A DNA stretch of 64,000 nt from Escherichia coli (GCF_030013205.1 NZ_CP122648.1), one strand, 5' to 3'. Numbered from the stretch's first letter, positions 139 through 37,917 are shown. The notes: a model not told the origin generated them from the sequence alone. Program-made: numbers and translations.

Positions 139-3100
139 TTAGTCATTTTGTTGACAGAAAACAGCTATCTCCTGGTCCAGCTCTGCAATGTGTTCTTTAA
201 CAGAGTTCAGCAACTTAAGAATTTCAGGCTTGCTGTCATCTGAAACGGGCGTTATTTCTAACTGATGGCTAAGATTAATCAACTTTTGCAAATTCAGGAT
301 GTTAGCCGCACCGTGGATGCGATGAATACACTGATGGAAAGTTCTGTTATCGCCAGCTTCTAACGCATGAAACGCAGCGGGTAGATCTTTATGCGTTTCA
401 TGCTGGAAAGTCATGAGAATCTCCTGCATCAGTTGTAGATCGTTCGCCGTATTATTTTTCAGGGCCTCGATATCAAGGTGGCGATACTGAGGTGCAATAG
501 GCGCAACCTGGTGTAACTGACTTAAATGTGTTTTCATTACATCCAGGGTCAACGGTTTGAACAAACATAAGTTCATGCCGCAATTTAACCCTTTTTCACG
601 TTCGTTAGCCTGTGCGTTGGCTGTAAGCCCCCAGATGGGTAAGGAAGAATTTTGCTCACGGAGTTTCCGAGTCAACTCAAAACCATCCATATTCGGCATA
701 TTAACGTCAGTAATAAGCAGATCATAATGTTGCATACTGACTTTGTGTAGCGCTTGCACACCATCAGTGGCTTCATCAACATCATATCCTAATAGGTTTA
801 GCTGGCGTTTGAGTAATAGCCTGTTGGTCGGATGATCATCCGCGATTAATATGCTCAACTTTTCAGGGAGTGTCATGGGTTGTTCTGCTTTTGCCTCGAC
901 AGTCGCCACTTGTTGGGTAATTTCTACCGGGATTGTGATCGTAAATGTCGTTCCTATGCCTGGATGACTTTCTAATGACAAATCGCCCTGCATGTTTTTA
1001 ATTAATTCTTTGCAGATTATTAAGCCTAAACCAGAACCTGTTTGCTGACGACCTGCACTTGTTTGGCTATAACGTTTAAACAGTTGTTGTTGTTCTTCCT
1101 GTGATAATCCACTTCCAGAATCCATAATCGTCATTTTGATTACAGCGTGGTTGTCATCAATGTTAACCAGGGAGGTCGTAATTTTTACTGCACCCTCGGT
1201 GGTAAATTTGAGAGCATTGCTCAGTAAATTAGATAAGACCTGCTTAAACGCCTGAGGGTCGATCTTAACCAGGTAATGTTCAGGAAACGTACTGCTGCAA
1301 CTTAATGCGATCGATTTGCTTGCAGCAATCGCACCGAAAGAGTGACAAGTGTTCTGGACTAAAGTAGGGATGTCGACCCATTGTGGTTGAAGTTGATAGT
1401 TACCCGACTCAATTTTGTCGACATCAAGGATTTCACCAATTAAGCCGAGGAGTGATTGTCCGGTGGCGTAGGCAAGTGAAATCGCCTCCACCCGTTGCTC
1501 CTTGCTAAGACCAGAACCCGACAGAAGTTCCAGGAAGCCCATAATGGAGCTTATTGGTGTTCTTATTTCGTGACTCATTGTTGCCAGAAACTGACTTTTT
1601 GCGACAGTTGCATTGATCGCTTTATTTCTCTCTACTTCGAGAGCGTGAATTAAATCACGCGTCTCGGTAATATCTTGCCAACCACAAATATAAACAGCAT
1701 GATCGCTGGCTGGCAGATTGCATAATGTATGCCAGTGATTAATGCATCTTTTCTCGATGCCATTATCAATTTCAAATACCTGTGTGTATATTGTTCGATT
1801 TTCTTTCGTTTCTGCTGTGACTTCATGCGCATTAGAAAAAACATCTTTAAAGGGTGAGTCACTGTTTTCTAATGGTAACATTGCATTTTTGTAGTAATCC
1901 GCAGTGAAATAATGTTCAAAAGCACTATTATGACTAATGACATTACCTTGCCAGTTTACAACATAAGTTGGATTCGGTAAGGAATCCGAGAGTGCTTTTC
2001 GGAATGATATTTGGTTTTCTAAATCACCCTGAATGACTTTACGACGACGAACTGAGCGTAACAGGTAGAATCCCCATAAAAGGCTACTGCCAACTAATAA
2101 AACGGATAATGTCGTGACAATATAAAATTGCTCGCTATAGAGGTCCCATGTGTCAATGGTCACATTGGGCATTTTAATCCATTTTTCCGTCAGGCGCAGA
2201 ACTTCGCTTGGGGGAATTGCATTCAGTGCTTTATTAATAATATCCTTAAGTTCCGGTTCTCCGCGAGGAAAAGCGAACGAAAGCGATGCATTCGGAACGC
2301 CGGGAATAAGAAAATGATAAAGTTCATTAGGATAGTAATGGTCGATCATGTAACGTGAATTTAACTGTGTCGCGACCAGAGCATCAAGTTCGCCTTCTTT
2401 AACCTTGTGAAATGCAGCGCTTGCGTTATCGACTTTTATCCACTCTACCTCCGGATACATCTCTTTTAATTGCGAATGAAGCTCATAATAATAGGGAATG
2501 GCAACTTTCATTCCTTTTTTTAATGTTTGTTCACTGTCAGGCGCTTTTTGCATGACAAAAACGTAAGGCGTTGTTATGAAGGCTTCAGCAAATAAAACAT
2601 TATTTTCTCTATCTTCACTATAAATAGCGGCGGGCAATATATCCCATCCACCGGGGTTAAGCTGTGTCCCCGCATGAATATTGTGTGAAACGGTGATCGG
2701 AGAAAAATTTAAACCTGTTTGCAAGGTAATAATATTAAGAATATCACCCATCACGCCCCGAACTGAGCCAGTTTCATCTGTCATAGAATAGGGTGGCGAG
2801 TAAGGATTTTCCAGCACCTTTAAATCGGGATGCTGCTTAATCCACTGTTTTTCATGTTCAGTGAGTTCTAATGGTTTGTTCAGAAAGGCCAGGTTTCCTG
2901 TATCAAGCCAATTTTGTGATACTTCATAGCGAACTTCATTTGTTAAAGCATCAACAAATCGATTGAGTACTTCATTAAGAACGACTGAATCTTTTCTGGT
3001 TAAGAAAAAGTTATATTGACGCGGCGAGTTATAATATTTCACTACATTTAAGGAGTGAGTGAAATAGCGGGAAATCATACTGCTGGTAATAATGTTACTA

Positions 3101-3732
3101 CCAATAAAGTAATCATTCTGTCCGGCTGAGACGGATGCTAATGCCTGATATAAATTTGTAAAAGAGATAATTGTTGCTTTTGGAAATGATTGATGAATTA
3201 CCTCATCTGGAGGGTAATTTGCTACCCGAGCAATATTTACTGGTTTTGATGAGGTAAGCGGTCTCATTGAATCGTGAAGGGTGGTGACCAGCGCCGGAAA
3301 GGTAATTATCAGCGGTTTGGTTGCAGCAATGTCATCATTAAGAGGCGGCGAAGCAACTAAATGTGATAACACTATATCGACTTCCCCTTCTGTAAGCGCG
3401 TCCATTGCTTTTTGATGATCTGCGTATTCCCGGAGTGTTAATTTGATATTTAACGCTCTTTTTAAAAGATTTAAATAATCAGCATTAATACCACGAACCC
3501 GTTGCTGCGAATCGGTATGCAACAAAGTAGCCGTTTGGGACTTGTGTACTGCAATCACAAGATTTTTTTTGCTCGCTAACCAACGTAATTCCTTGTTGCT
3601 CAGACGTAGTGGATCAAGCGTGACACGGTTGTTACTACTGATGCCACGATATTCGATGTAATCTTCGTCTGCGAAACTTATGGTCGACCAAAGACCACAA
3701 CAGAGAAGAATAATATAGGGTAAAAACTTCAT
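139..3732 (-). CDS. evgS: Hybrid sensor histidine kinase EvgS (two periplasmic solute-binding domains, HisKA/HATPase, receiver, HPt)
   Basis: 1197-aa ORF with HEIRTP H-box, receiver domain and C-terminal HPt; immediately downstream of evgA on the same strand. Confidence 0.95.
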   Translation of the reverse strand: MKFLPYIILLCCGLWSTISFADEDYIEYRGISSNNRVTLDPLRLSNKELRWLASKKNLVIAVHKSQTATLLHTDSQQRVRGINADYLNLLKRALNIKLTLREYADHQKAMDALTEGEVDIVLSHLVASPPLNDDIAATKPLIITFPALVTTLHDSMRPLTSSKPVNIARVANYPPDEVIHQSFPKATIISFTNLYQALASVSAGQNDYFIGSNIITSSMISRYFTHSLNVVKYYNSPRQYNFFLTRKDSVVLNEVLNRFVDALTNEVRYEVSQNWLDTGNLAFLNKPLELTEHEKQWIKQHPDLKVLENPYSPPYSMTDETGSVRGVMGDILNIITLQTGLNFSPITVSHNIHAGTQLNPGGWDILPAAIYSEDRENNVLFAEAFITTPYVFVMQKAPDSEQTLKKGMKVAIPYYYELHSQLKEMYPEVEWIKVDNASAAFHKVKEGELDALVATQLNSRYMIDHYYPNELYHFLIPGVPNASLSFAFPRGEPELKDIINKALNAIPPSEVLRLTEKWIKMPNVTIDTWDLYSEQFYIVTTLSVLLVGSSLLWGFYLLRSVRRRKVIQGDLENQISFRKALSDSLPNPTYVVNWQGNVISHNSAFEHYFTADYYKNAMLPLENSDSPFKDVFSNAHEVTAETKENRTIYTQVFEIDNGIEKRCINHWHTLCNLPASDHAVYICGWQDITETRDLIHALEVERNKAINATVAKSQFLATMSHEIRTPISSIMGFLELLSGSGLSKEQRVEAISLAYATGQSLLGLIGEILDVDKIESGNYQLQPQWVDIPTLVQNTCHSFGAIAASKSIALSCSSTFPEHYLVKIDPQAFKQVLSNLLSNALKFTTEGAVKITTSLVNIDDNHAVIKMTIMDSGSGLSQEEQQQLFKRYSQTSAGRQQTGSGLGLIICKELIKNMQGDLSLESHPGIGTTFTITIPVEITQQVATVEAKAEQPMTLPEKLSILIADDHPTNRLLLKRQLNLLGYDVDEATDGVQALHKVSMQHYDLLITDVNMPNMDGFELTRKLREQNSSLPIWGLTANAQANEREKGLNCGMNLCLFKPLTLDVMKTHLSQLHQVAPIAPQYRHLDIEALKNNTANDLQLMQEILMTFQHETHKDLPAAFHALEAGDNRTFHQCIHRIHGAANILNLQKLINLSHQLEITPVSDDSKPEILKLLNSVKEHIAELDQEIAVFCQQND

Positions 3733-3736
3733 GTGG

Positions 3737-4351
3737 TTAGCCGATTTTGTTACGTTGTGCGAATGTGTAAAGATCCATCAGTGATTTACATTCTAATTTT
3801 TCCATCAGGCGACTTTTATAAGTGCTGACAGTTTTGTTGCTGATGAACATTTTTTCCGCAATGTCATTATTATCCTTGCCATCAAGAATATATCGCATGA
3901 CACTAATTTCTTGTTTCGATAAGGAGTCGAGTTTTTGCTGGTCGGACGTTAAACTTCCAACAAACCGGTTGAGAGAGAAGGGGAAATAGCAGTAGCCATT
4001 TTTTGCAGCTTCAATAGCCGCAATGATATTGTTCATGCCTTCTTTTTTACTCACGAATCCATTAGCGCCAGCATCAGCACAATGTTTCCCGTAAAAATGG
4101 TCATTTTTAGCGGAGACGATAATAATAATTCCGCTATATTGGCGCTTCCTCAGCGTTTCTAACACCTGGATACCGTTAACTCCGGGGATATCGACATCAA
4201 TGATGACGATATCAGGTTTAAGTGTTTCCACCCGCTGAACGGCACTTCCCCCTTCAGTCAACTCCGCTAAGATTTCAATATCGTTTTTGATCAATAAATT
4301 ACGAATTGCTGCGATAGCAAGAGGATGGTCATCAATAATTATTGCGTTCAT
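3737..4351 (-). CDS. evgA: Response regulator EvgA (receiver + LuxR-type HTH)
   Basis: 204-aa ORF MNAIIIDDHPLAIAAIRNLL... with C-terminal LuxR/FixJ HTH; divergent from emrK. Confidence 0.95.
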   Translation of the reverse strand: MNAIIIDDHPLAIAAIRNLLIKNDIEILAELTEGGSAVQRVETLKPDIVIIDVDIPGVNGIQVLETLRKRQYSGIIIIVSAKNDHFYGKHCADAGANGFVSKKEGMNNIIAAIEAAKNGYCYFPFSLNRFVGSLTSDQQKLDSLSKQEISVMRYILDGKDNNDIAEKMFISNKTVSTYKSRLMEKLECKSLMDLYTFAQRNKIG

Positions 4352-13019: not shown

Positions 13020-14267
13020 ATGGCACTGAATATTCCATTCAGAAATGCGTACTATCGTTTTGCATCCAGTTACTCATTTCTCTTTTTTATTTCCTGGTCG
13101 CTGTGGTGGTCGTTATACGCTATTTGGCTGAAAGGACATCTAGGATTAACAGGGACGGAATTAGGTACACTTTATTCGGTCAACCAGTTTACCAGCATTC
13201 TATTTATGATGTTCTACGGCATCGTTCAGGATAAACTCGGTCTGAAGAAACCGCTCATCTGGTGTATGAGTTTCATTCTGGTCTTGACCGGACCGTTTAT
13301 GATTTACGTTTATGAACCGTTACTGCAAAGCAATTTTTCTGTAGGTCTAATTCTGGGGGCGCTCTTTTTTGGCCTGGGGTATCTGGCGGGATGCGGTTTG
13401 CTTGACAGCTTCACCGAAAAAATGGCGCGAAATTTTCATTTCGAATATGGAACAGCGCGCGCCTGGGGATCTTTTGGCTATGCTATTGGCGCGTTCTTTG
13501 CCGGTATATTTTTTAGTATCAGTCCCCATATCAACTTCTGGTTGGTCTCGCTATTTGGCGCTGTATTTATGATGATCAACATGCGTTTTAAAGATAAGGA
13601 TCACCAGTGCATAGCGGCGGATGCGGGAGGGGTAAAAAAAGAGGATTTTATCGCAGTTTTCAAGGATCGAAACTTCTGGGTTTTTGTCATATTTATTGTG
13701 GGGACGTGGTCTTTCTATAACATTTTTGATCAACAACTCTTTCCTGTCTTTTATGCAGGTTTATTCGAATCACACGATGTAGGAACGCGCCTGTATGGTT
13801 ATCTCAACTCATTCCAGGTGGTACTCGAAGCGCTGTGCATGGCGATTATTCCTTTCTTTGTGAATCGGGTAGGGCCAAAAAATGCATTACTTATCGGTGT
13901 TGTGATTATGGCGTTGCGTATCCTTTCCTGCGCGTTGTTCGTTAACCCCTGGATTATTTCATTAGTGAAGCTGTTACATGCCATTGAGGTTCCACTTTGT
14001 GTCATATCCGTCTTCAAATACAGCGTGGCAAACTTTGATAAGCGCCTGTCGTCGACGATCTTTCTGATTGGTTTTCAAATTGCCAGTTCGCTTGGGATTG
14101 TGCTGCTTTCAACGCCGACTGGGATACTCTTTGACCACGCAGGCTACCAGACAGTTTTCTTCGCAATTTCGGGTATTGTCTGCCTGATGTTGCTATTTGG
14201 CATTTTCTTCCTGAGTAAAAAACGCGAGCAAATAGTTATGGAAACGCCTGTACCTTCAGCAATATAG
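13020..14267 (+). CDS. cscB: Sucrose:H+ symporter CscB (MFS, LacY-like)
   Basis: 415-aa 12-TM ORF MALNIPFRNAYYRFASSYSFLFFISWSLWWSLYAIW..., oligosaccharide:H+ symporter family. Confidence 0.9.
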   Translation: MALNIPFRNAYYRFASSYSFLFFISWSLWWSLYAIWLKGHLGLTGTELGTLYSVNQFTSILFMMFYGIVQDKLGLKKPLIWCMSFILVLTGPFMIYVYEPLLQSNFSVGLILGALFFGLGYLAGCGLLDSFTEKMARNFHFEYGTARAWGSFGYAIGAFFAGIFFSISPHINFWLVSLFGAVFMMINMRFKDKDHQCIAADAGGVKKEDFIAVFKDRNFWVFVIFIVGTWSFYNIFDQQLFPVFYAGLFESHDVGTRLYGYLNSFQVVLEALCMAIIPFFVNRVGPKNALLIGVVIMALRILSCALFVNPWIISLVKLLHAIEVPLCVISVFKYSVANFDKRLSSTIFLIGFQIASSLGIVLLSTPTGILFDHAGYQTVFFAISGIVCLMLLFGIFFLSKKREQIVMETPVPSAI

Positions 14268-15344: not shown

Positions 15345-15555
15345 ATGAATATGGCAGCACCAAAGGGCAACCGATTTTGGGAGGCCCGCAGTAGTCATGG
15401 GCGAAATCCTAAATTCGAATCGCCTGAGGCGCTGTGGGCTGCTTGTTGTGAATACTTCGAGTGGGTAGAAGCTAACCCGCTATGGGAGATGAAGGCATTC
15501 TCGTATCAGGGTGAAGTGATACAAGAGCCTATCGCCAAGATGCGAGCGATGACCA
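15345..15555 (+). pseudogene. Small terminase subunit (P22 gp3-like), N-terminal about 70 codons only
   Basis: [71 protein letters not shown] matches the P22 gp3 N-terminus as I recall it; the rest of the 157-aa ORF is out-of-context read-through overlapping the next gene. Confidence 0.7.
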
Positions 15556-15657
15556 TTATCCAAACCGTATGCCTGTTGGTAGCGGTAATCAGTTGGCGAA
15601 GTGGAACGGTTGGAGTTACTTCCAGCGAAAGGAACCTTGCGATAACGGGAGCGAATA

Positions 15658-17076
15658 ATGCCGATTCAGCAACTTCCGCTCATGAAAGGTGTCGGAAAAG
15701 ACTTCCGAAACGCCGACTATATCGACTATCTGCCAGTGAATATGTTGGCTACACCCAAAGAAATCCTGAACAGCAGCGGATATCTTCGCTCATTCCCGGG
15801 CATTGCCAAACGTTCTGATGTGAACGGCGTATCGCGCGGAGTTGAGTACAACATGGCGCAGAGTGCTGTTTATCGCGTGTGTGGCGGCAAGCTGTACAAA
15901 GGAGAAAGTGAGGTCGGTGACGTCGCAGGAAGTGGTCGCGTATCAATGGCGCATGGTCGGACATCACAGGCGGTAGGCGTTAATGGTCAACTGGTCGAGT
16001 ATCGTTATGATGGCGCGGTCAAAACCGTCTCAAACTGGCCTACAGACAGCGGATTCACGCAGTATGAGTTAGGTTCTGTTCGTGACATTACGCGCTTACG
16101 TGGGCGTTATGCGTGGTCAAAAGACGGAACTGATTCATGGTTTATCACTGACCTTGAAGACGAATCGCATCCTGACCGTTACAGCGCACAATATCGTGCC
16201 GAGTCGCAGCCTGACGGCATCATCGGCATCGGAACATGGCGAGACTTCATCGTCTGCTTTGGTTCATCGACGATTGAATATTTCTCCCTGACTGGTGCAA
16301 CCACCGTTGGTGCCGCTTTGTATGTTGCACAGCCATCACTGATGGTGCAGAAAGGTATTGCTGGGACTTACTGCAAAACGCCATTCGCTGATTCTTATGC
16401 GTTCATCAGCAATCCGGCAACAGGTGCGCCGTCTGTATACATCATCGGCTCCGGTCAGGTGTCACCAATCGCCAGCGCGAGCATTGAGAAAATCCTCCGC
16501 TCCTACACTGCTGATGAACTGGCTGATGGCGTGATGGAATCGCTGCGGTTTGATGCGCATGAGTTGCTGATTATCCATCTTCCGCGCCATGTCCTCGTGT
16601 ACGACGCATCTTCAAGCGCCAATGGTCCGCAATGGTGTGTGCTGAAAACAGGCCTGTATGACCATGTGTACCGCGCTATTGACTTCATTTACGAAGGCAA
16701 TCAGATAACGTGCGGCGATAAGCTGGAGTCTGTTACCGGGAAATTGCAGTTCGATATATCTTCACAATACGAAAAACAACAAGAGCATATTTTATATTCC
16801 CCTCTAATAAAGGCAGATAACGCTTTAATAAATGACCTTGAATTAGAAACATCTGGCGGCGTGTGTGATAGAATAGATAAAATATTTATATCAGCCACTA
16901 CAGATGGAATTAGTTACGGTCGTGAGCAAATGGTCGTATTACAAAAACCATTTGTATATGAAAATCGCGTTTTATGGCGAAAGGTTGGTCGAGTTAGACG
17001 CCTCATTGGATTTAAATTCAGAGTTATTGCAAAAGGTCCTGTCACATTATCAGGCCTTTCTATTCGTGTAACATAA
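15658..17076 (+). CDS. P22 gp10-like packaged-DNA stabilization / head completion protein
   Basis: 472-aa [52 protein letters not shown]..., same length and near-identical N-terminal region as P22 gp10 from memory. Confidence 0.85.
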
Positions 17077-17097
17077 ATCGAAACTCAAGGAGTAGAT

Positions 17098-17631
17098 ATG
17101 TTAAGTGAAAACGCAAAAGATATCGAAGGATATGAAGGACTGTACGCCATCACTAATGATGGTAGAGTTTACTCGCATTCAAGAGTAAATTTGAGGGGAC
17201 GTCTTATTAAGGGTAGGTGGCTGAAGCATAATCATAACGTAAATGGATATAAGTATGTGTGTTTATATAAGGATGGCGTAAAAAAGAACATACTAATACA
17301 TAAGCTTGTTGCATCTCACTTTGTTGGTGGATTTGCTGAAGGGTTACAGGTAAATCATATAGATGGTGATAAATATAATAATAACTATCTAAATCTTGAA
17401 TGGGTTACTCCATCAGGAAACATCTCACACTCATATGGATTGGAGTCGAGAGGTAATGTAAAAGGAGAAAGGAATGGTAATTCTAAAATATCTAATGATG
17501 ATGTCATAAAGATAAAAGAAATGGTTGCCAATGGATTTCCTCAGTGTGAAGTTGCTAAATTATTTGGAATTCACAATTCAAAGGTTAGTAGAATTGTAAA
17601 TGGCAAGGCATGGAGGCATGTTAATGGCTGA
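17098..17631 (+). CDS. HNH homing endonuclease (HNH + AP2/NUMOD-like DNA-binding region)
   Basis: 177-aa ORF with [17 protein letters not shown] and HKLVASHFV...[11 protein letters not shown] (HNH) motifs; free-standing between gp10 and the tail needle gene. Confidence 0.8.
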
Positions 17632-18055
17632 TTCGAATCTCAACACCCCTGTTATTGTGCAGGCTACGCGGCTCGATACATCAATACTTCCACGCAATAT
17701 CTTCTCGCAGTCGTATCTGCTTTACGTTATCGCACAGGGCACTGATGTTGGTAACGTGGCTAACAAGGCCAACGAGGCCGGACAGGGCGCTTATGATGCA
17801 CAGGTCAGGAACGATGAGCAGGATGTGATTCTGGTCGATCATGAAGAAAGAATTCGTCAGCTCCGCATTGAAGTAGATGACCATGAAATCCGTATTGCTG
17901 CGAATACTGCGGCAATTGCAGCGCTGGATGTCAGACTAACCACGGCTGAAGGAGAAATAGTCACCTTACAGGCTGACGTCAGCGCTCTTGATGGCCGGGT
18001 TCCCGAGAAATACAAAGAGCAGAATTACAAGAAAAGGCTCTGGACAGACAGATAG
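17624..18055 (+). CDS. Tail needle protein (P22 gp26-like), N-terminal domain conserved, short divergent C-terminus
   Basis: [43 protein letters not shown]...[48 protein letters not shown] matches the gp26 N-terminal coiled coil; only 143 aa versus about 233 in P22. Confidence 0.7.
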
Positions 18056-18582
18056 CCAGAGAAAGCAATCAGTTAAAGCTCGAAGAGCTAAAACAGAAAC
18101 AGGCAGATGTTCGGCAAAAGGCTGACATAGCCCGCGCTGACAGGCAGGCCGCCGCTCAGGGTGCGGTTGATACGTTCAGCACCGCGCTTGATTCTCTCAA
18201 CGAGACAGAGCAAAGCCCCGGCCTTTCAAAAGCAGTAGGAATTCGCTCAGCGTTTCCGACAGTTCCTGGCTCTGATGCGGCTAACTTTGAAGCAAGACTC
18301 GACACCTTTAAAGCTCAAACTTTCCTCCCTATGGTGCAGTCCCTGAAGGGGATGGGGGCTCTTTCAGATGCTGAGGGTAAAAAATTATCTGATGCGGTTG
18401 GTGCTCTAAGTCCCAAAATGAGTGAAAAGGCTTTTCGTGACTCTATCGGAAAGATTCGAAATCAGCTTGAAAGCAAGTTGAGCACTGTTAAAAAACAGTT
18501 TGATTATCAGGAGCCAGTACAGAATACGCCAGGGCAACAATCTACTACTGGCAGTAACTTTTCTTCACTATGGGGTGATTAA
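17986..18582 (+). pseudogene. Start-less coiled-coil ORF fragment (possible 3' part of a tail needle or ejection gene after a deletion or frameshift)
   Basis: Frame open from 17986 with no ATG until 18331; encodes ...LKLEELKQKQADVRQKADIARADRQAAAQGAVDTFSTALDSL...; stop overlaps the start of the next gene (ATGA at 18579-18582). Confidence 0.3.
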
Positions 18583-21064: not shown

Positions 21065-21734
21065 ATGACAGACATTACAGCCAATGTGATCGTATCGATG
21101 CCTTCGCAACTCTTCACTATGGCTCGTTCTTTTAAAGCCGTAGCCAATGGCAAAATTTATATCGGTAAAATTGACACTGACCCGGTAAATCCTGAAAACC
21201 AGATTCAGGTTTATGTGGAGAACGAAGACGGTTCTCACGTTCCTGTTGCACAGCCAATCATCATTAACGCCGCTGGTTATCCTGTATATAACGGACAGAT
21301 TGCCAAGTTCGTTACTGTGCAAGGCCATTCCATGGCTGTTTATGATGCGTATGGGGCGCAGCAGTTCTATTTTCCGAATGTGCTGAAGTACAACCCTGAT
21401 CAATTACGAACAATTCTTGAAGGAAGTATTATTGATTCTTCAGGCGATGTTTTTGGCTCTCCTGTGCGTGATTTTGAATATTTTGGCGCAGTAGGTGATG
21501 GTGTTGCCGATGACACTAATGCAATTAAATCCGCGGCTGCATGGGTTACTTCTGGAAATTATCGGCAAATAACTACCAGAGAACAAAAGATATATCGCGT
21601 AACATCAACCGTTGATTTTAATTTCGCTAACGGCCGCGGTCACTCGATTCTGATGAAGAGTCCAATCCGACCTGATGCTGGAACCGGCACTGCTTTTCTC
21701 ATTCAGAATACTCGAGACTCGGTATTCAATTTGA
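21065..21734 (+). pseudogene. Tailspike gene, 5' part (P22 gp9-type head-binding domain plus start of beta-helix), interrupted by IS1
   Basis: [58 protein letters not shown]... matches the P22 tailspike N-terminal domain; the frame is cut by the IS1 end at 21735. Confidence 0.85.
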
Positions 21735-21749
21735 GGTAATGACTCCAAC

Positions 21750-22253
21750 TTACTGATAGTGTTTTATGTTCAGATAATGCCCGATGACCTTGTCATGCAG
21801 CTCCACCGATTTTGAGAACGACAGTGACTTCCGTCCCAGCCTTGCCAGATGTTGTCTCAGATTCAGGTTATGCCGCTCAATGCGCTGAGTATAACGCTTG
21901 CTGATAACGTGCAGCTTTCCCTTCAGGCGTGATTCATACAGCGGCCAGCCATCCGTCATCCATACCACGACCTCAAAGGCCGACAGCAGGCTCAGAAGAC
22001 GCTCCAGTGTGGCCAGAGTGCGTTCACCGAAGACGTGCGCCACAACCGTCCTCCGCATCCTGTCATACGCGTAAAACAGCCAGCGCTGACGTGATTTAGC
22101 ACCGACGTAGCCCCACTGTTCGTCCATTTCAGCGCAGACAATCACATCACTGCCCGGTTGTATGCGCGAGGTTACCGACTGCGGCCTGAGTTTTTTAAGT
22201 GGCGGAAAATCGTGTTGAGGCCAACGCCAATAATGCGTGCACTGGCGCGACAT
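21750..22253 (-). CDS. insB: IS1 InsB' (transposase made as an InsAB' frameshift fusion)
   Basis: 167-aa ORF ending ...[18 protein letters not shown], overlapping insA in the -1 frame. Confidence 0.95.
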
Positions 22254-22447
22254 CCGACGCCATTCATGGCCATATCAATGATTTTCTGGTGCGTACCGGG
22301 CTGAGAGGCGGCGTAAGTGAACTGTAGTTGCCATGTTTTACGGCAGTGAGAGCAGAGATAGCGCTGATGTCCGGCGGTGCTTTTGCCGTTACGCACCACC
22401 CCGTCAGTAGCTGAACAGGAGGGACAGCTGATAGAAACAGAAGCCAC
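22172..22447 (-). CDS. insA: IS1 InsA
   Basis: 91-aa [46 protein letters not shown]... Confidence 0.95.
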
Positions 22448-28841: not shown

Positions 28842-30113
28842 CTATTCTTTCCAGTCAATCCCATCCAGTAAGCACCCTGCCTCATATTGCCCCACCACCC
28901 AGTCAAGGTTACAGGACTCATAGAACGCGAGGCGATTATACTGAGGCTCGTTTTTTACCAGGCCACGAACGGAACCACGCTGCCAGTACAGACACAGATT
29001 GGCAAGAGGTGTGATCAATACAGCATTGTCCGGGAAAAATGGAACGGTCACAGCCGGGAGATTCCCCAGAACGGGATTTTTAATGATTTCCTCGTTAAGC
29101 AAAATTTCCTGATTCATCTGCGATGGATCAAGACGGTTTATCAAAGGCCATTGTTTACGGACCAGCGTATTGTGACTGCATACGGCCACAATGCCTTCCT
29201 GCCACTGTTCATCAATCATGGATTGCCAGGCATCCAGAACGAGCGCATCTATCGTATGGTGTGTACCGCGTATATTACTTTTCGGTGATGAGACAGAAAG
29301 GCCGCTGATAACCCTTCCCGCCGCTTCATTTCGAAACTTCTGCAACCAGCCCACGCCGCAATCGTCACGCCCCGGATATGTTCCGGGATCTGATACATCG
29401 GCATAGTGCGTACCGTTAAAACCAATCTGAATCAAATCCAGCCATTTCTGGCGTTCAAAAGCAGCCCGGGCGCTTCCTTCAAGACCGTTTGCGGATGCGT
29501 GAGCATCAACATTGTCGTAGTTCAGCGCAAAATCAAAATTAACCTGCTCGCAGCGGTAGCCCCTTGAAACCAGTGAATGCGCCTGTAGTGGCGAGCGGCG
29601 CTCGTGAGGTGGCGATGTACGTGCTAACGGCCCCGAAGCGTCTACCAGCACAACCTGACCTGATATATCCGTAACAGGCACGGGAGTTATTTCAGCAAGG
29701 AAATTTGCCTGCCATCCACTGGCAAGCGTTGCACTCTGGCGGGGGACGGGTTCAACTTCTGACGAATAGCGCGCAGTGTCACCGGAAAAGTGCAAATCCT
29801 TCGGATGCTTTCCGGTTATCGACTCGATAGCGCAATTGAAAACCATCTGAGACTGTTGATTTCGTTGTGATACAACAGAATCAGCAGTGCAATTATAACG
29901 CTCAATGCCGTCGTTATTACCCCCACCGCTTGCAGTATGCAGGGTGTGAAGCTCAAGCTCACGCTCCAGTTTTTGATATTCATTGTCCAGCGCGCGACGC
30001 GTCTCATCGCTTATGCTTGCTGTGTTTGCTTTCAGGCGATTCCGGGACATTAATCCCCTGAGTCGGCTCACTATATCAGCGCCGTGCAAATGTGGAGTAT
30101 TCAGACCGCCCAT
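28842..30113 (-). CDS. P2 gpN-family major capsid protein homologue with divergent N-terminal region
   Basis: Start taken at internal ATG 30113 (TAATG overlap with the upstream gene stop). C-terminal two-thirds align by eye with P2 gpN (...YRCEQVNFDF..., ...GWLQKFRNEAAGRV..., ...GNLPAVTVPFFPDNAVLITPLANL..., ...YESCNLDWVVGQYEAGCL...). Confidence 0.7.
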   Translation of the reverse strand: MGGLNTPHLHGADIVSRLRGLMSRNRLKANTASISDETRRALDNEYQKLERELELHTLHTASGGGNNDGIERYNCTADSVVSQRNQQSQMVFNCAIESITGKHPKDLHFSGDTARYSSEVEPVPRQSATLASGWQANFLAEITPVPVTDISGQVVLVDASGPLARTSPPHERRSPLQAHSLVSRGYRCEQVNFDFALNYDNVDAHASANGLEGSARAAFERQKWLDLIQIGFNGTHYADVSDPGTYPGRDDCGVGWLQKFRNEAAGRVISGLSVSSPKSNIRGTHHTIDALVLDAWQSMIDEQWQEGIVAVCSHNTLVRKQWPLINRLDPSQMNQEILLNEEIIKNPVLGNLPAVTVPFFPDNAVLITPLANLCLYWQRGSVRGLVKNEPQYNRLAFYESCNLDWVVGQYEAGCLLDGIDWKE

Positions 30114-30823
30114 TACTGCCACCCCCGGCAGAGTTCTCTGCCCTCCGCAAGGTCGCGCATTTTTTCTGGATTCTGTCGCGCCGCGCTCCATTGTACAGGT
30201 GAAGGGGCGCTCCTGATTGCGCAGCTTACTGAATCCGGGAGTTTCTCCGGGCAATAACGCAGCGGGCTGGAGGTGTCGCTTTCGGTATCGTTAATCCGGC
30301 CGCGAATCATCCCGACACTTTCAGCAGTATCTGCCGCTTTCAGTGTTTCGCATATTTTCTTTTCTGCGTTATACAGCGGCTGGCCAAGTAGCTCACATAA
30401 ACCACGAATCAATAACAGAACAGGGGTCAGCTCGTTAATCAGTTCGGGAAGTGCTTTTGCAAATATCTCTGCCCGCAACTTATTATCAATGCTTTCGTAA
30501 GCACAACCAGCCTCTGCCGCGTTATAACGACACTCCAGTAGCCTGATGCGCGCTTCATCATGCAATACCCGCAGACGCTCAAGATTTTCTCGCGCCACAC
30601 CCGCCTGAATGGATAATTTCGCGGAGGCTTCCGTTTTTACGCCCAGCGCAGACAGGATTGAGTTCTGCCAGTCACGATCGAGAGATTCCAGCTCCCCTTT
30701 CGTCTGTTCGATAGTCGCTTCCAGATTGGTGATTAATGATTCCTGTTCACTGAGTTTTGCCATGGCTGTATCAAACTGTGCTTTACATACCTGATGTTCG
30801 GCGCTTGCCTGAGTTATATCCAT
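30113..30823 (-). CDS. Coiled-coil protein coupled to the capsid homologue (candidate scaffold, Sid or Psu-like morphogenetic factor)
   Basis: 236-aa helical ORF immediately upstream of and overlapping the capsid gene start; assignment is positional. Confidence 0.4.
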   Translation of the reverse strand: MDITQASAEHQVCKAQFDTAMAKLSEQESLITNLEATIEQTKGELESLDRDWQNSILSALGVKTEASAKLSIQAGVARENLERLRVLHDEARIRLLECRYNAAEAGCAYESIDNKLRAEIFAKALPELINELTPVLLLIRGLCELLGQPLYNAEKKICETLKAADTAESVGMIRGRINDTESDTSSPLRYCPEKLPDSVSCAIRSAPSPVQWSAARQNPEKMRDLAEGRELCRGWQ

Positions 30824-30873
30824 TATTTGCTCCTGTAATACATTTTTTTACTTACGCCGATTTTTTCCATATT

Positions 30874-30934
30874 GCGTAATACATTCCAGCCGATTTTGTT
30901 CTCGTAATACGCTCACAATACTGTTGTATTACGC
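30874..30934. promoter_or_regulatory. Three palindromic operator-like sites GCGTA(A/T)TACGC in the divergent promoter region
   Basis: Sites at 30874-30882, 30903-30912 and 30926-30934 between the coiled-coil gene start (30823) and the RHH gene start (30989); further copies at 31014-31024, 31545-31555 and 31906-31913. Confidence 0.55.
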
Positions 30935-30988
30935 TTTCTTATATCGCGGGTGTTAAATCCCGGCATAAACAATCAGGGAGGCAACACG

Positions 30989-31222
30989 ATGAAAAAACAA
31001 AAGAAAATGCGATGCGTATTACGCTGTATTCGTATCCCGCACGAAATCGACCATAAAATAAATCAGATATGTGAGGACAGAGAGATGAACTACTCCCAGT
31101 GCGTCAGAATGTTTATCAGTCAGGGAATTAAGGCCGGGGAAAAGCAGGAAGAAGACCACAACGGGCGCAATGTAGCGGGGGATGTGTGGGCCTGGGCAAA
31201 TGACCAGAACCACACGACGTAA
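30989..31222 (+). CDS. Small ribbon-helix-helix-like putative transcriptional regulator
   Basis: 77-aa product MKKQKKMRCVLRCIRIPHEIDHKINQICEDREMNYSQCVRMFISQGIKAG...; GGGAGG RBS 8 nt upstream; divergent from the capsid operon. Confidence 0.45.
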   Translation: MKKQKKMRCVLRCIRIPHEIDHKINQICEDREMNYSQCVRMFISQGIKAGEKQEEDHNGRNVAGDVWAWANDQNHTT

Positions 31223-31272
31223 TACAGAAATAACGCAGCCGGTCACACTCGCTGGCTGTGTTATACAAATCA

Positions 31273-31455
31273 CTATGAAGTTTTCGACTTCCTGCGCTTA
31301 GTAATGCGTACAAACGACTCAAGCGTACAAAAACAAGCCCCACACTCAATATTGTTGCACTGGTAATACGTTCTGTAGATGTTTTGTTCGTGTTCTTCCA
31401 ACGAACGACCACGGGTGCGAGCTGAAGCGCCACAGGCCGGGCAAGGGAAAGACAT
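31273..31455 (-). CDS. Ogr/Delta-family zinc-finger late-gene transcriptional activator
   Basis: 60-aa ORF MSFPCPACGASARTRGRSLEEHEQNIYRTYYQCNNIECGACFCTLESF... with the CPxC...RT.R...YxQCxNxxCxxxFxTxES pattern of P2 Ogr. Confidence 0.8.
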   Translation of the reverse strand: MSFPCPACGASARTRGRSLEEHEQNIYRTYYQCNNIECGACFCTLESFVRITKRRKSKTS

Positions 31456-31817
31456 ATCGCGCTCCTCTTACTGGCGTGAAATTTAACCTATTATATCTTC
31501 CGTTGCCTCCTCTGGCTGTATCAAATAAATCCGCGATGGTCGCTGCGTATTACGCGCAGACACACCGTTCCCATGCTCACTCCTCACATTCCCCGTATCA
31601 ATTCTCTCTTGCCGTAAGAACGGCTCTGGCTGGCGATAAAACTAACCCGGTCAGGCATTCCCGCAGTCTTTAGCGAAAGATGTAATTTACCCCCTGAAAC
31701 GCGGGCTGTTCCCCCGTCACCTGCGCGCGAAAAACTCACCGTTTTTTGTGCACGCACGAAATCGCCCTCCGGGCGCGCCAGTACCGGGCCGGATGGGCAA
31801 AAAGTTACTCTAAAAAA

Positions 31818-31845
31818 TTGTGCAAATTTGTGCACTTTTGTGCAG
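31818..31845. promoter_or_regulatory. Three direct TTGTGCA repeats with 10-bp phasing (operator-like)
   Basis: TTGTGCAAATTTGTGCACTTTTGTGCAG; a fourth TTGTGCAC at 31746-31753. Confidence 0.45.
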
Positions 31846-32059
31846 ATGAACAACAGCGTCAAAAAGAGTGCTTTTGAGAGATTTTTTATGGCAACTGCGC
31901 CGCGTGTATTACGTTTTTACCATCCCCGCCGCGCATGTACATACTTCATTTTTCTGCCAAACAACAGGGCAACTCCCCGTGACTGACAGCCCCAAAAAAT
32001 CAATGATTAATGTTGCGTCTTTGTTAGAGGTCAGATCAGTTGTTTTGGGACTCTGCCTC

Positions 32060-32383
32060 AAAATCCGGTAGGGGGTGCGGAAACGGGTTACAAAGGTTAC
32101 ACCCCCCTAAAACACACTATAATCATATGATTTTAAAACATATTTCTTGTAACCTTTTTGAGGTTACAGAAGGTTACACGAGGTTACAGCTCTCAAAAAC
32201 AGATTAATTATCAATTAATTATAAATTTAACCTGTAACCAACAGTAACCACTACATAAAGGTTACATGTAACCCTGTTGTAACCCGTTTGTAACCTTTTA
32301 AATTTATTATAATATATTGATATATAATACGTTTTTCTGTTTGTAACCTTTGTAACCCGTTTCCGCACCCCCCCCCGGATTTT
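32060..32383. repeat. Block of about 14 GGTTACA/TGTAACC repeats flanked by near-perfect inverted repeats of about 40 bp (candidate attP-like or origin region)
   Basis: Left arm AAAATCCGGTAGGGGGTGCGGAAACGGGTTACAAAGGTTACA (32060-32101) is the reverse complement of the right arm (about 32339-32383); AT-rich core with both-orientation GTAACC repeats. Confidence 0.6.
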
Positions 32384-32628
32384 AGCGCGACCCTTTAAAA
32401 TGTTAATTAAACTCACTAACTCTGTATCACTCTCATTAACTCTCTATGATTGAAATGTATCTCACTGCTGTTTAACTCTTTCTGATAATCAAGAAAGGAG
32501 AGCAAAAAACTGATGGCGCTACCGCTGCAATATGGCCACCATCGCATTGCTGTTACCGTTGGCTTTGGCCAACAAAAAAGGCCAGTGGAAAACTGACCTC
32601 TTTTGCTGTGAATGTAGTGTTCTGCGGG

Positions 32629-33630
32629 TTACTCTACTGGCTCTTTTTGTTCAGTGAATGCCATGTTAGCTATCGGGTTAAACCTCATGGCATCCGCCAG
32701 ATAGTCGGGGGAAAAATGCGCATAAGTCATCGTTTGCTGGATAGTCGCATGTCCAAGAATCCGTTGTAATGTAACGATATTCCCACCGTTAATCATAAAG
32801 TGTGTGGCAAATGTATGACGCATGACATGCGTAGCCTGCCCCTTCGGTAAATCCGGCTTCACCTCCTGAAGGATCTCCCGGAACTTCAGATAATCAACCT
32901 GATACAACAACCCCGTCCGGCGGGTCTTAATCAGCGGCACGACCGAATCAGCCACAGGAACCGAACGGGATTTTCCGTTTTTGGTGTTAAAGAACGTCAC
33001 CCGGTTGCCAATGATGTGCTCTCCACGTAGTTCCGATGCTTCACTCCATCGGGCACCAGTAGAAAGACACAGAATGGCAACACGACGCGCATCACCCTCC
33101 AGTCGCTCAAGAAGCCGCTCAATCTCATCATCAGAAAGAAAGGCCATCTCTGTATTCTGAATTTTTAGCTTGCGTATACCGCGTACAGGGTTCGGGTTGT
33201 GAAAGACCTCAGCTTCAATCAGCACCGTGAACATGGTAGACAGAACGCACAAGTCACGATTAATGCTGGATGGCATTAAGCCGGCCTGTAATTTCTCTGA
33301 CCGATACTCAAGCATAAATTTTTGCGTCATCTGGCTGGCACGCGGATCTCCCATTTCACGAATCACTTTCTCCATCCGGATCCTGTAGGTATCACCGTAA
33401 GCCTGGTTACGGCCATCAAGCATCCACCATATATCAAGCAGCTCTGATAATCTCCGTCGATCAGCAGGTTTAGCCAGCCATGGGTTGTTATGGAAATTCT
33501 GTAAAATATGTTCTTTGAAGGCCTCCGCACTCCCTTTCCTGACAAAAATTTTACGTATCCGTTTGCCGTACGCCCCTTGGGGCCTGATATCGAGCAGCCA
33601 TCGCCCATCATCCATCTTTCTGATCGACAT
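32629..33630 (-). CDS. P2-type tyrosine integrase
   Basis: 333-aa ORF MSIRKMDDGRWLLDIRPQGAYGKRIRKIF...LSELLDIWW...INRDLCVLSTMFTVLIEAE...ILCLSTGARWSEA...GQATHVMRHTFATHFMINGGNIVTLQRILGHATIQQTMTYAHF matches P2 Int in length and motifs. Confidence 0.8.
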   Translation of the reverse strand: MSIRKMDDGRWLLDIRPQGAYGKRIRKIFVRKGSAEAFKEHILQNFHNNPWLAKPADRRRLSELLDIWWMLDGRNQAYGDTYRIRMEKVIREMGDPRASQMTQKFMLEYRSEKLQAGLMPSSINRDLCVLSTMFTVLIEAEVFHNPNPVRGIRKLKIQNTEMAFLSDDEIERLLERLEGDARRVAILCLSTGARWSEASELRGEHIIGNRVTFFNTKNGKSRSVPVADSVVPLIKTRRTGLLYQVDYLKFREILQEVKPDLPKGQATHVMRHTFATHFMINGGNIVTLQRILGHATIQQTMTYAHFSPDYLADAMRFNPIANMAFTEQKEPVE

Positions 33631-33632
33631 AC

Positions 33633-36302: not shown

Positions 36303-36314
36303 ATATAAATCCCC

Positions 36315-36344
36315 CCCACTGCACCTTTTGCAGTGGGTTTTTTA
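36315..36344. terminator. Hairpin plus T-run between the primase gene start and the upstream small ORF
   Basis: CCCACTGCA-CCTTTT-TGCAGTGGG followed by TTTTTTA; reads as a canonical terminator on the + strand. Confidence 0.4.
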
Positions 36345-36348
36345 TTAA

Positions 36349-36648
36349 TTACTCGTTGCTTATTGCTTTGGCAATCCCGGCGGTTTCGGCGCTATGCCAT
36401 GAAAAAATTCCGCCGGATGAATGCATACCAGATTTTATTGATTGTAATTCCCTATAAATAATGTTAGACAGAGATGCAATTTCTTCATTTATAATTTCTG
36501 CTGATGCTCCGCCATTTTTATCGTCAAAAACCACAGATATTAAACTGACGAGATTAATCACATCTGTGAGATCTTCCTTTGCACTTTCTGTAAAAAAGCC
36601 AACATATTCTCTATCTAAAAAATTTTCGCTATTCTGACGTTTAGACAT
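36349..36648 (-). CDS. Hypothetical protein (AT-rich, island-specific)
   Basis: 99-aa ORF, first of a run of small co-oriented genes upstream of the primase gene; no family recognised. Confidence 0.4.
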   Translation of the reverse strand: MSKRQNSENFLDREYVGFFTESAKEDLTDVINLVSLISVVFDDKNGGASAEIINEEIASLSNIIYRELQSIKSGMHSSGGIFSWHSAETAGIAKAISNE

Positions 36649-36715
36649 AAAAACTCCCCGACCCGTTAAGGCCGAAATATAAATTTAATTCAGTTATCAG
36701 TTGGTAATTCGGGAA

Positions 36716-36934
36716 TCAGGCGGAAAGCTGCGTCACCTTCAACGCCCTGAAATGTGTCATTCCCAGCTCTTCCAGCCCTTCGGCTGCGCGGCGTATGGCT
36801 TCGCCCGGTCCCGTTCCGTATACCGTTGCATGTGCATGTTTGGTTAACCCACGTTTATTAACGGCATAACCCAACACAAAGAAACGTTTTTCACCACTGC
36901 CATTATTTTTACGGGATGTTGAACGGGTTTTCAT
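36716..36934 (-). CDS. Hypothetical small protein
   Basis: 72-aa ORF; start overlaps the stop of the upstream gene (4-nt overlap). Confidence 0.35.
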   Translation of the reverse strand: MKTRSTSRKNNGSGEKRFFVLGYAVNKRGLTKHAHATVYGTGPGEAIRRAAEGLEELGMTHFRALKVTQLSA

Positions 36935-37119
36935 TTCTTCACCTTTACCACTGATGCTGTGAGTTCTTCTTCTGGCAACTGATATTTCGGCGCAATTTCT
37001 TCCGTATACCTGATAGCGTCCCTTGCCGCTTTTCCTTTTGATTTATATTTATATGTGGTCCGGTAGTTTTCTTCCTCTCCTGTTACCACATTACGCAATT
37101 TAATATGAATCTCGTACAT
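36931..37119 (-). CDS. Hypothetical small protein
   Basis: Start taken at MYEIHIKLRNVVTGEEENYRTTYKYKSKGKAARDAIRYTEE...; the track ORF extends 10 codons further upstream. Confidence 0.35.
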   Translation of the reverse strand: MYEIHIKLRNVVTGEEENYRTTYKYKSKGKAARDAIRYTEEIAPKYQLPEEELTASVVKVKK

Positions 37120-37121
37120 CG

Positions 37122-37304
37122 TTACCCCTCCATGATTTTTACTGCGCATTTGTGGGTTAATCGCCCCTGTTCATTCGTGCGGCTGTACTCCATGCGGCTG
37201 GCAGCACGCAGGGCATCATCACAGGTCTGATATTCCCTGACATGAAAAAACTGACGAACGTCGCCGCTCTGGCAGTTAATCAGGGTGATAAGGAGCTTAA
37301 ACAT
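37122..37304 (-). CDS. Hypothetical small protein
   Basis: Start taken at MFKLLITLINCQSGDVRQFFHVREYQTCDDALRAASRMEY...; the longer track ORF overlaps the upstream gene. Confidence 0.3.
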   Translation of the reverse strand: MFKLLITLINCQSGDVRQFFHVREYQTCDDALRAASRMEYSRTNEQGRLTHKCAVKIMEG

Positions 37305-37824
37305 TGCACGCCTCCCGGATACGAATACGGGCAACAGAGACCAGACGGGATGCCGGAAGCAGGGCGCGCGCTTCGCGCTCACTGGCGGCGGTAACGGTAT
37401 GAAGGCGGATATTTTTACCGTGGCACTGCATAAAGCGCCAGATAAAATCAGGGCGTGTTGATATAGCCATTTTGGCGGCTCCTTTGTCTAATTTACGGAG
37501 TCTCGCCAGCACGCTGCTAAACATGGTGGCGGGACGTAACAGGGTTAGCAGACTGGTGACAAAGAAACCAGCAGGCCTTACGGCCTCCCCATTACGCCCC
37601 GCCATAATACGGGAAAGGGTGGTATTACGGGCACAAAAAAACCGCATTACGGAAATATAGCGGCTACCCGCTTTGTCAATCAGGCTGCTAAACCCGGCAC
37701 CCGCTTTATGAGGTGCGGGCAAACGATACGCCATGACAAAAAAGCGAGTCAAGCAATATTGCAAATTATTTTTGCGTGATTGCGCTGAGTAATTGATTTT
37801 TAAGAGTAAAAAAGCCATAATCAT
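37297..37824 (-). CDS. Hypothetical protein (basic, Arg/Ala-rich)
   Basis: 175-aa ORF, first gene downstream of alpA; true start may be the internal MAYRLPAPHKAG... Confidence 0.35.
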   Translation of the reverse strand: MIMAFLLLKINYSAQSRKNNLQYCLTRFFVMAYRLPAPHKAGAGFSSLIDKAGSRYISVMRFFCARNTTLSRIMAGRNGEAVRPAGFFVTSLLTLLRPATMFSSVLARLRKLDKGAAKMAISTRPDFIWRFMQCHGKNIRLHTVTAASEREARALLPASRLVSVARIRIREACNV

Positions 37825-37885
37825 TTCTGCCTATTATTTCTTATTGTTGGTTTCAGGTGCACTAAATGCACATCCTTGACTGGTT

Positions 37886-37917
37886 GGCTCGCTAGCTTTA
37901 GCGAGCTTCTTTTTTGC
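37886..37917 (+). terminator. Plus-strand intrinsic terminator-like hairpin with no annotated plus-strand gene upstream
   Basis: GCTCGCTA-GCTT-TAGCGAGC followed by TTCTTTTTTG; a second hairpin GGTGCACTAAATGCACATCC lies about 20 nt upstream. Confidence 0.4.

Follow-up and report, generated by a model that had tools for sequence, protein, structure and literature searches.

A probable I-HmuI-type homing endonuclease gene in a mobile gene 10 cassette of P22-like phages, and its most likely inert copy in an Escherichia coli prophage remnant

Why should an HNH endonuclease gene stand between two structural genes of a P22-like phage, and what could it do there? The question is raised by the 64,000-nucleotide stretch of Escherichia coli DNA analysed here (GCF_030013205.1, NZ_CP122648.1; hereafter, the window), in which an open reading frame (ORF) for a 177-amino-acid (aa) HNH protein separates the homologue of P22 gene 10 from the gene for the tail needle, gp26. 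We consider it likely, from sequence comparison, that this is a free-standing homing endonuclease gene of the I-HmuI type, carried in a mobile cassette of about 870 bp that includes the end of gene 10, and that the copy in the window is most likely inert. The gene itself is already named in RefSeq, as 'NUMOD4 domain-containing protein'. Our literature search turned up no account of an HNH gene between genes 10 and 26 of P22-like phages, though an earlier mention in Casjens and Thuman-Commike 2011 is possible.

The features of the junction are the following (GC, guanine plus cytosine content).

15658..17076, plus strand: gene 10 homologue (packaged-DNA stabilisation or head-closure protein), 472 aa; Pfam Phage_stabilise, E=1e-280, and phrog_578
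16758..17076, plus strand: recoded low-GC 3' end of gene 10 (GC about 35%), the left part of the cassette
17077..17097, plus strand: cassette leader of 21 nt with the ribosome-binding site of the endonuclease gene, read from the sequence
17098..17631, plus strand: putative HNH homing endonuclease gene, type A; ATG start, 177 aa, the same as RefSeq WP_000947776.1
17612..17616, plus strand: GGAGG Shine-Dalgarno sequence of the tail-needle gene, inside the 3' end of the HNH ORF
17624..18001, plus strand: tail-needle (gp26) gene, N-terminal codons only (about 126); phrog_1219 residues 1-127, E=8e-65

The junction and the cassette

The gene 10 product is a full-length homologue of P22 gp10 by both Pfam and PHROGs. 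Its TAA stop codon (17074-17076) is followed by a 21-nt spacer before the HNH start codon, and the HNH ribosome-binding site, AAGGAG, occupies 17087-17092 of that spacer, 5 nt before the ATG. At the other end, the TGA stop codon of the HNH ORF (17629-17631) overlaps the tail-needle gene, whose ATG lies at 17624, by 8 nt, and the ORF ends inside gp26 codon 3. The tail-needle Shine-Dalgarno sequence, GGAGG, is placed 7 nt before its ATG and stands in for the AAGGA that the end of gene 10 provides at empty junctions; it is kept in three related HNH genes found at this junction, which we call types A (that of the window), B and D. The initial annotation had placed a 177-aa HNH ORF here, overlapping the tail-needle start by 8 bp, had held that the two flanking genes are adjacent in P22, and had credited the enzyme with a DNA-binding region of its own. 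All of this is borne out: the ORF call and the Pfam and PHROGs matches agree with the gene, the overlap is exact, genes 10 and 26 of P22 are separated by only 3 nt, and the protein has a NUMOD4 domain scoring above the cut-off together with a C-terminal helix-turn-helix (HTH) domain in its AlphaFold2 model.

The HNH ORF did not arrive at the junction by itself. Gene 10 of the window is a chimera, in which codons 1 to about 366 are of the ordinary Sf6/HK620 type and the remainder comes from the cassette. Against Sf6, the E. coli prophage of strain ANT and phage vB_EcoP-683R2 (683R2), nucleotide identity is 92-98% per 60-nt block up to about nt 1080 of the gene and 47-68% thereafter, and at the protein level the recoded end is 55-65% identical to theirs and to the other P22-like gp10 C-termini. 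GC falls from about 0.51 upstream to 0.30-0.40 in the 3' end of gene 10, and it stays low through the HNH gene. On the right the boundary is exact, since homology with empty-site phages resumes at the gp26 ATG, at TAATGGCTGATTCG, and we therefore take this ATG as the cassette's right-hand limit; sites that vary among the first 40 nt of gp26 show no linkage with the HNH gene. On the left there are two breakpoints, one at about nt 1101 of gene 10 (type A carriers and the type B loci L016 and L017) and one at about nt 1131 (strain A42, phage HZ41, strain KE40 and loci L018, L019, L033 and L036).

The same diverged, AT-recoded gene 10 end is common to carriers of types A, B and D. We surveyed 5,426 complete E. 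coli genomes, counting type A at 95% identity or more, and the diverged end is followed by an annotated NUMOD4/HNH gene in 55 of 55 genomes that have it (35 with type A, 16 with type B and 4 with type D). In IMG/VR, a type A, B or D gene lies directly 3' of this gp10 C-terminus (at least 87% identity, GC 0.34-0.40) in 28 of 28 loci. Loci with an ordinary gp10 C-terminus (62-69% identity, GC 0.43-0.50) have an HNH gene in 0 of 23 cases, gp26 following 3-18 nt after gene 10 in every one; Fisher's exact test for 28/28 against 0/23 gives 5e-15, on loci that are not independent. In view of this invariable linkage between the recoded end and types A, B and D, we take the mobile unit to be a cassette of about 870 bp, 16758-17623, made up of the recoded last ~106 codons (~320 nt) of gene 10, the leader and the HNH ORF. 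To judge from its sequence, the recoded end is likely to be an 'immune' allele of the target region of the endonuclease. The gp10 C-termini of P22, Sf6 and HK620 and of Proteus, APSE and Sodalis phages are 58-67% identical to it, and the C-termini that we sampled are either at least 87% identical and HNH-linked or at most 69% identical. Phage HZ41 is the only sequenced phage with the recoded C-terminus, and we therefore regard the lineage that donated the low-GC end of gene 10 as unsampled.

Most junctions have no insert. The type A gene was found in 35 of the 5,426 genomes, and a contiguous Sf6-type junction in 807 genomes, 16 of which carry a different insert of 495 bp (type C, described below). 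Among the roughly 860 junctions, about 790 are empty and about 71 occupied, which places an HNH gene at about 8% of them and type A at about 4%. The junction is likewise empty in P22, Sf6, HK620 and CUS-3, and in Sf6 and the prophage of strain ANT genes 10 and 26 overlap at TAATG. When 50,697 phage records were searched by megablast, the P22-like phages listed with both flanks matched had a junction about 548 bp shorter than that of the window, HZ41 and 683R2 being the exceptions among the phages listed. The comparison across P22-like genomes thus shows that the gene is not a normal resident of this position. The reading of it in the initial annotation as a selfish homing insertion is supported, with two refinements: sporadic presence, linkage and mosaic edges agree with that reading, but the gene belongs to a replacement cassette and is no clean intergenic insert, and the copy at hand lies in a dead prophage and is probably not homing now.

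The predicted enzyme and a model for homing

The protein was scored against Pfam with curated cut-offs, scanned with PHROGs, PADLOC and NCBIfam, and compared with PDB sequences by phmmer. NUMOD4 (PF07463) matches residues 7-57 with 49.5 bits (cut-off, 23.4) and HNH_3 (PF13392) residues 67-108 with 39.3 bits (cut-off, 24.8), and an HTH at residues 138-168 scores below the Pfam cut-off. The HNH endonuclease family phrog_59 matches at 2e-49 and the PADLOC homing endonuclease model ('HEase') at 1e-31; the NCBIfam scan of types A, C and E returned no matching model. By phmmer, residues 7-174 align with residues 4-163 of the 174-residue chain of I-HmuI (PDB 1U3E, E=8e-21), which pairs H87 with H75, N108 with N96, N99 with N87 and N86 with D74. 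Conservation among 71 relatives from IMG/VR is nearly complete at H87 (70), N99 (71) and N108 (69). The AlphaFold2 model, made with a 33-sequence alignment, has a mean predicted local distance difference test score of 91.7, with values below 80 only in a linker at 111-130, and it ends in a three-helix HTH domain at 133-167 (helices 133-144, 149-156 and 160-167). A Foldseek search of the PDB with this model puts 1u3e first (E=5e-10, with 179 columns aligned), ahead of I-PpoI and then of HTH domains (resolvase, IstA and KorA) that match the C-terminal three helices. By sequence and modelled fold alike, the protein belongs to the I-HmuI type over its full length, with NUMOD4, HNH_3 and a C-terminal HTH, and the gene has both the computable features of the I-HmuI/HNH_3-NUMOD4 family and the comparative features of a free-standing homing gene.

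An Rfam scan of 16400-18400 gave no intron or credible RNA family, its only return at E<=1 being a chance match to a small nucleolar RNA at E=0.71. With neither a group I intron nor another Rfam family around it, the HNH gene can be described as free-standing. An intron-encoded homing endonuclease was considered and rejected: the Rfam scan was empty in this respect, and the flanking ORFs are complete without splicing.

In enzymes of the I-HmuI type, the nuclease domain is joined to a long DNA-binding region built of several modules, which contacts up to about 30 bp (PMC3943268). The type A protein would be a monomeric, extended, site-specific DNA nickase or cleavase, with a long target read by the N-terminal NUMOD4 beta-sheet and the C-terminal HTH domain. 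Cutting would fall to the beta-beta-alpha-metal site, with H87 as the general base and with N86, N99 and N108 serving metal binding and structure. During co-replication of P22-like phages with and without the cassette, the enzyme would nick or cut the cassette-free allele within the final ~320 nt of gene 10 or where gene 10 meets gene 26. Resection would proceed to the nearest good homology, which lies upstream of about nt 1100 of gene 10 on the left and at the start of gp26 on the right, and repair would copy the entire heterologous block into the cassette-free phage. Because the gene 10 ends of recipient and donor are only about 55% identical, strand invasion would be possible only outside the heterology, every event would copy the whole block, and the edges of the cassette would consequently be the edges of homology. 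The recoded gene 10 end, with a DNA identity of only about 55%, would protect the carrier allele, and the cassette should do the phage no harm, since gene 10 retains its full length and gene 26 its signals for translation. Domain architecture, intact motifs, sporadic presence, linkage, mosaic edges, spread over backbones and purifying selection are observed; the nuclease activity, the target position and the homing of type A are what we infer from them.

How the cassette is distributed over phage backbones is consistent with such movement. It occurs with different alleles of gp4, gp26 (several needle types) and gp14, and the backbones of its carriers span 70-99% identity in the N-terminal part of gp10. 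Relative to the window, this N-terminal identity is 70% at locus L118, 87% at L114 and 92% at L115, and that of the cassette part is 87-93%; at L118 the C-terminal part of gp10 is 87% identical, so the cassette there is better conserved than the backbone. At locus L021, a gene 10 with GC of 57% has a 3' end with GC of 41%, and the HNH gene after it shows 41% identity to type A. The ratio of nonsynonymous to synonymous substitution rates (dN/dS, Nei-Gojobori) is 0.06-0.07 in type A, 0.05-0.07 in type B and 0.04 in type D, and the ORF is under strong purifying selection within all three lineages. Moreover, the isolated phage HZ41, whose record is marked UNVERIFIED, carries the chimeric gp10 together with type B, and the arrangement of chimeric gp10 and HNH gene is therefore compatible with an isolated phage.

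Two known systems bear comparison. With I-HmuI the protein has in common the full-length architecture, a similar size (177 against 174 aa), and the aligned histidine general base and asparagine ligand. However, the I-HmuI gene lies inside a group I intron of the DNA-polymerase gene of SPO1, a lytic Bacillus phage of a Gram-positive host, whereas type A is free-standing, without an intron signal, between two structural genes of a temperate enterobacterial podophage; the two proteins are only about 30% identical in sequence, asparagine replaces Asp74, and nicking by type A is a prediction from its sequence. The best precedent for the proposed mechanism is MobE of T4, an HNH nickase encoded by a free-standing gene that has no promoter; it nicks the adjacent gene of phages that lack MobE, which drives co-conversion of the flanks (PMC2790892). 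The MobE gene is wedged between two essential genes (PMC2790892), and type A, too, lies between two genes and travels with a converted flank. MobE depends on upstream transcription and targets the neighbouring gene and not its own insertion point (PMC2790892); type A likewise has no promoter of its own and is translationally embedded in its operon. The Mob proteins differ from type A in having the HNH domain at the N-terminus, in domain order and in their DNA-binding modules. Type A, in contrast to MobE, has a temperate phage or prophage as its host, and its linked flank is deeply diverged (about 45% DNA difference over 320 nt), where MobE has a few polymorphisms.

Other endonuclease genes around gene 10

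Is this an isolated case? Junction inserts were translated and scanned against Pfam, and five types of HNH gene were distinguished around gene 10.

Type A: WP_000947776.1; 177 aa; NUMOD4 + HNH_3
Type B: WP_021514124.1, strain A42 and phage HZ41; 181 aa; NUMOD4 + HNH_3; 52% identical to type A
Type D: WP_042048397.1, strain KE40; 181 aa; NUMOD4 + HNH_3; 44% identical to type A and 56% to type B
Type C: phage vB_EcoP-683R2, URC09345.1; 164 aa; HNH_3 + AP2; 22% identical to type A
Type E: phage UPF_BP1, SPUPF_00057, 20433-20957, and locus L027:888-1613; 194 aa; 43% identical to type A

Types B and D agree exactly with type A in their junction, and they also have its leader, N-terminus, C-terminal end and linked gene 10 end. 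The 21-nt leader AAATCGAAACTnAAGGAGTAGAT is common to all three, the first ~29 residues are nearly the same, and the last 8 aa are the same, the proteins finishing in GKxWRHVNG; their genes end in ...GGAGGCATGT(T/G)AATGGCTGA, which puts the stop codon inside gp26 codons 2-3. The leader AAATCGAAACTnAAGGAGTAGATATG is common to types A, B and D and also to type E, which occupies a different site. Lineages A, B, D and E have one leader and one N-terminus, with diverged middle and C-terminal parts that would determine specificity.

Type E is like type A in its leader and N-terminus, and over the first ~47 aa it nearly matches type B, but it lies between gp4 and gp10 and recodes gene 10 at the 5' end. 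Upstream of type E, 34 codons of the original start of gene 10 remain as a stub; the gene 10 start that type E brings with it is AT-rich and recoded, and it overlaps the 3' end of type E itself. Further loci with type E are L024-L026, L029-L032, L035, L037, L096, L100 and L110, and four loci have type E plus type A or B, with endonuclease genes on both sides of gene 10. Type C uses the same junction as type A, but it encodes an unrelated HNH_3+AP2 protein and sits on an ordinary gene 10 end. Its ORF (L006:1980-2474; ON470594.1, 32056-32550) is present in 16 E. coli genomes and labelled 'endolysin' in GenBank, an annotation that we correct here to an HNH-AP2 endonuclease. The last codons of type C, RQRIE before the stop, mimic the RIE and stop that normally end gp10 before gp26. 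Insertion sequences (IS) have also entered this region: in M160133 (L008:2889-3586) an IS1 lies between gene 10 and the type B gene, and at IMG/VR locus L109 an IS1 in the same interval removes the HNH start codon.

Competition between I-HmuI-type enzymes that use the same site has been mentioned in the literature (PMC3943268; PMC2790892), and competition 'beyond homing', with marker exclusion, has been reported for I-HmuI and I-HmuII. It is conceivable, though we think it unlikely, that gene 10 is a battleground of diversifying I-HmuI-like endonucleases, each cutting both empty and rival alleles, with the copy in the remnant still excluding or converting superinfecting P22-like phages. As a find the locus is only mildly unusual: the gene alone is ordinary, and what sets it apart is the cassette with its recoded flank and a junction colonised several times. 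HNH genes have settled at this one junction at least four times, and gene 10, an essential gene, has been used at both of its ends. The cassette would offer a clean natural example of a homing unit that carries its own recoded 'immune' end of the target gene, in the tractable group of P22, Sf6 and HK620. Target-site choice, co-conversion across heterology and the competition of one endonuclease with another could be tested in HZ41, 683R2, Sf6 and HK620. Moreover, chimeric gp10 proteins are now marked as such, which is relevant to structural work on the tail hub of P22 and Sf6.

The copy in the window and competing explanations

The surroundings of the gene, by RefSeq annotation and tblastn, are a heavily deleted P22-like prophage remnant in the E. 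coli chromosome and not a phage genome. It has the csc sucrose genes on one side and the intS/argW end of a KplE1-type site on the other, and the E. coli lineage that carries it is swine-associated; over 16600-18100 the window shows 100% identity with strain K_EC180 and with several swine isolates of O139:H1/enterotoxigenic E. coli (ETEC). It retains torI, a fusion of terS and gp4, intact gp10, the HNH gene, a cut gp26, an ejection-protein fragment, a gp16-like ORF, an Arc-family gene, a cut tailspike head-binding domain, gtr genes and intS. When it was searched by tblastn with the proteins of an intact relative, no terminase large subunit, portal, scaffold, coat, gp14 or gp7 was found. A scan for sigma-70-like promoters near the HNH gene yielded none, with fewer sites than in shuffled controls. 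In the sister strains ETEC6333 and ETEC6334, an IS3-family element is inserted in the HNH ORF at about codon 17 (L090:1181-2409). Because the remnant is deleted, neither a promoter-like site nor the late promoter is present, and IS3 interrupts the ORF in these sister strains, we think that the window copy is probably an inert passenger. Nevertheless, the cassette in the remnant is still flanked by about 1.1 kb of ordinary gene 10 on its upstream side and by about 380 bp of gp26 on its downstream side, and, if it were expressed, the copy could still convert or damage a superinfecting relative.

Could the cassette have spread without any help from the nuclease? The HNH gene would then be a 'moron', a passenger in a mosaic module moved by general homologous recombination, whose nuclease may be inactive on phage DNA or have another role, and the independent assortment of gp4, gp26 and gp14 alleles at the same loci, the strongly mosaic nature of P22-like phages and cassette edges that coincide with edges of sequence homology, as any recombination would give, are all in keeping with this. 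It is hard to explain in this way, however, how four independent HNH lineages came to one junction and a fifth, type E, to the other end of gene 10. Furthermore, dN/dS of 0.04-0.07 shows selection on the protein, which has the architecture of proven homing enzymes and is completely linked to a diverged 'immune' flank. We consider a passive module improbable and favour nuclease-driven insertion, on the grounds of five independent HNH insertions around a single gene and selection on the ORF. Several points nevertheless weigh against a homing endonuclease cassette. In phages as mosaic as these, ordinary recombination could alone move a block of ~870 bp. The asparagine at position 86 replaces the I-HmuI metal ligand Asp74, although asparagine is the majority residue there (57 of 71 relatives), so that the difference is the family norm. 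The genome counts include clonal lineages (swine O139/ETEC and O111:H8), do not represent independent events and are inflated. Searches of the phage collection (tblastn, blastn) and of IMG/VR found no HNH-free or wholly low-GC gp10 of the recoded type, and our literature search found no cleavage or homing test of the type A protein or its close relatives.

Other explanations grant the HNH gene a function for the cell or for the phage. It may be retained as a weapon, expressed from the cryptic prophage to cut cassette-free P22-like phages at gene 10/26 and thereby either to shield the host through superinfection exclusion or to convert the invader. The type A protein is indeed 100% identical to the copy in an apparently intact O111:H8 prophage, even though its neighbours are deleted or truncated, the remaining stretches of gene 10 and gp26 could serve as homology arms, the PADLOC 'HEase' model matches, and same-site competition of such enzymes is on record (PMC3943268; PMC2790892). 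But the upstream sequence holds no promoter-like site, the promoter region of the late operon is gone, the IS3 insertions in two sister strains show that loss is tolerated, and gp10 and the gp16-like ORF have also survived intact, so intactness is not specific to the HNH gene; the single synonymous difference from the O111 copy points to recent decay and not to long-term retention. On balance we find such a defensive role quite improbable. Alternatively, the protein might be a component of the phage, a helper in packaging or morphogenesis like the terminase-associated HNH of the HK97 gp74 type. The gene does stand within a late structural operon, and an HNH protein encoded next to terminase is described as required for cos cleavage in many phages (PMC3592412, PMC5304195). 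However, about 92% of E. coli P22-like junctions, as well as P22, Sf6 and HK620, do without the gene, and in the intact O111:H8 prophage (L007) the terminase genes occupy 2087-3921 and the HNH gene begins at 10499, the large-subunit gene ending about 6.6 kb upstream. P22-like phages, moreover, package by a headful mechanism. The terminase-associated HNH proteins described in PMC3592412 pair the motif with zinc-ribbon domains, whereas type A has NUMOD4 and an HTH. Position, distribution and architecture effectively rule out a terminase-associated HNH, and we regard any role as a functional phage component as extremely unlikely. A homing endonuclease cassette whose copy in the window has probably fallen silent remains the explanation that we prefer.

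The decay of the remnant can be followed on both sides of gene 10. A deletion scar at 15345-15660 fuses a 5' fragment of the small-terminase gene to a 3' fragment of gp4 just before gene 10. By tblastn, gp26 is cut at about 18001 after some 126 codons, and it is incomplete in RefSeq; at 17624-18582 the cut gene is joined to a fragment that RefSeq labels 'acyltransferase, incomplete', the last 83 codons of which (18331-18579) match the C-terminus of the P22 ejection protein family phrog_2534. Of the tailspike gene (21065-22447), the head-binding domain (Pfam Head_binding, 1-113) is all that remains before an IS1 on the minus strand breaks it at about 21750 (InsB ORF, 21750-22253).

A second integrated element, a P4-like satellite, lies in 28842-40714, between the remnant's intS and argW, the latter being a tRNA-Arg gene (CCT) at 40640-40714 on the minus strand. 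It contains an integrase gene (39199-40503), a toprim primase-like ORF (33633-36302), an Icd-like gene and a P2-family major capsid gene (28842-30254), and a MazEF-type toxin-antitoxin pair adjoins it. The window is about 1.66 kb longer than K_EC180 somewhere within ~30.8-32.6 kb. On its other side the remnant is abutted by the sucrose (csc) regulon, including a CscB-type permease gene (13020-14267 and upstream), and the annotation of the matching RefSeq genome gives frameshifts in dsdA, emrK and emrY and a truncation of dsdX.

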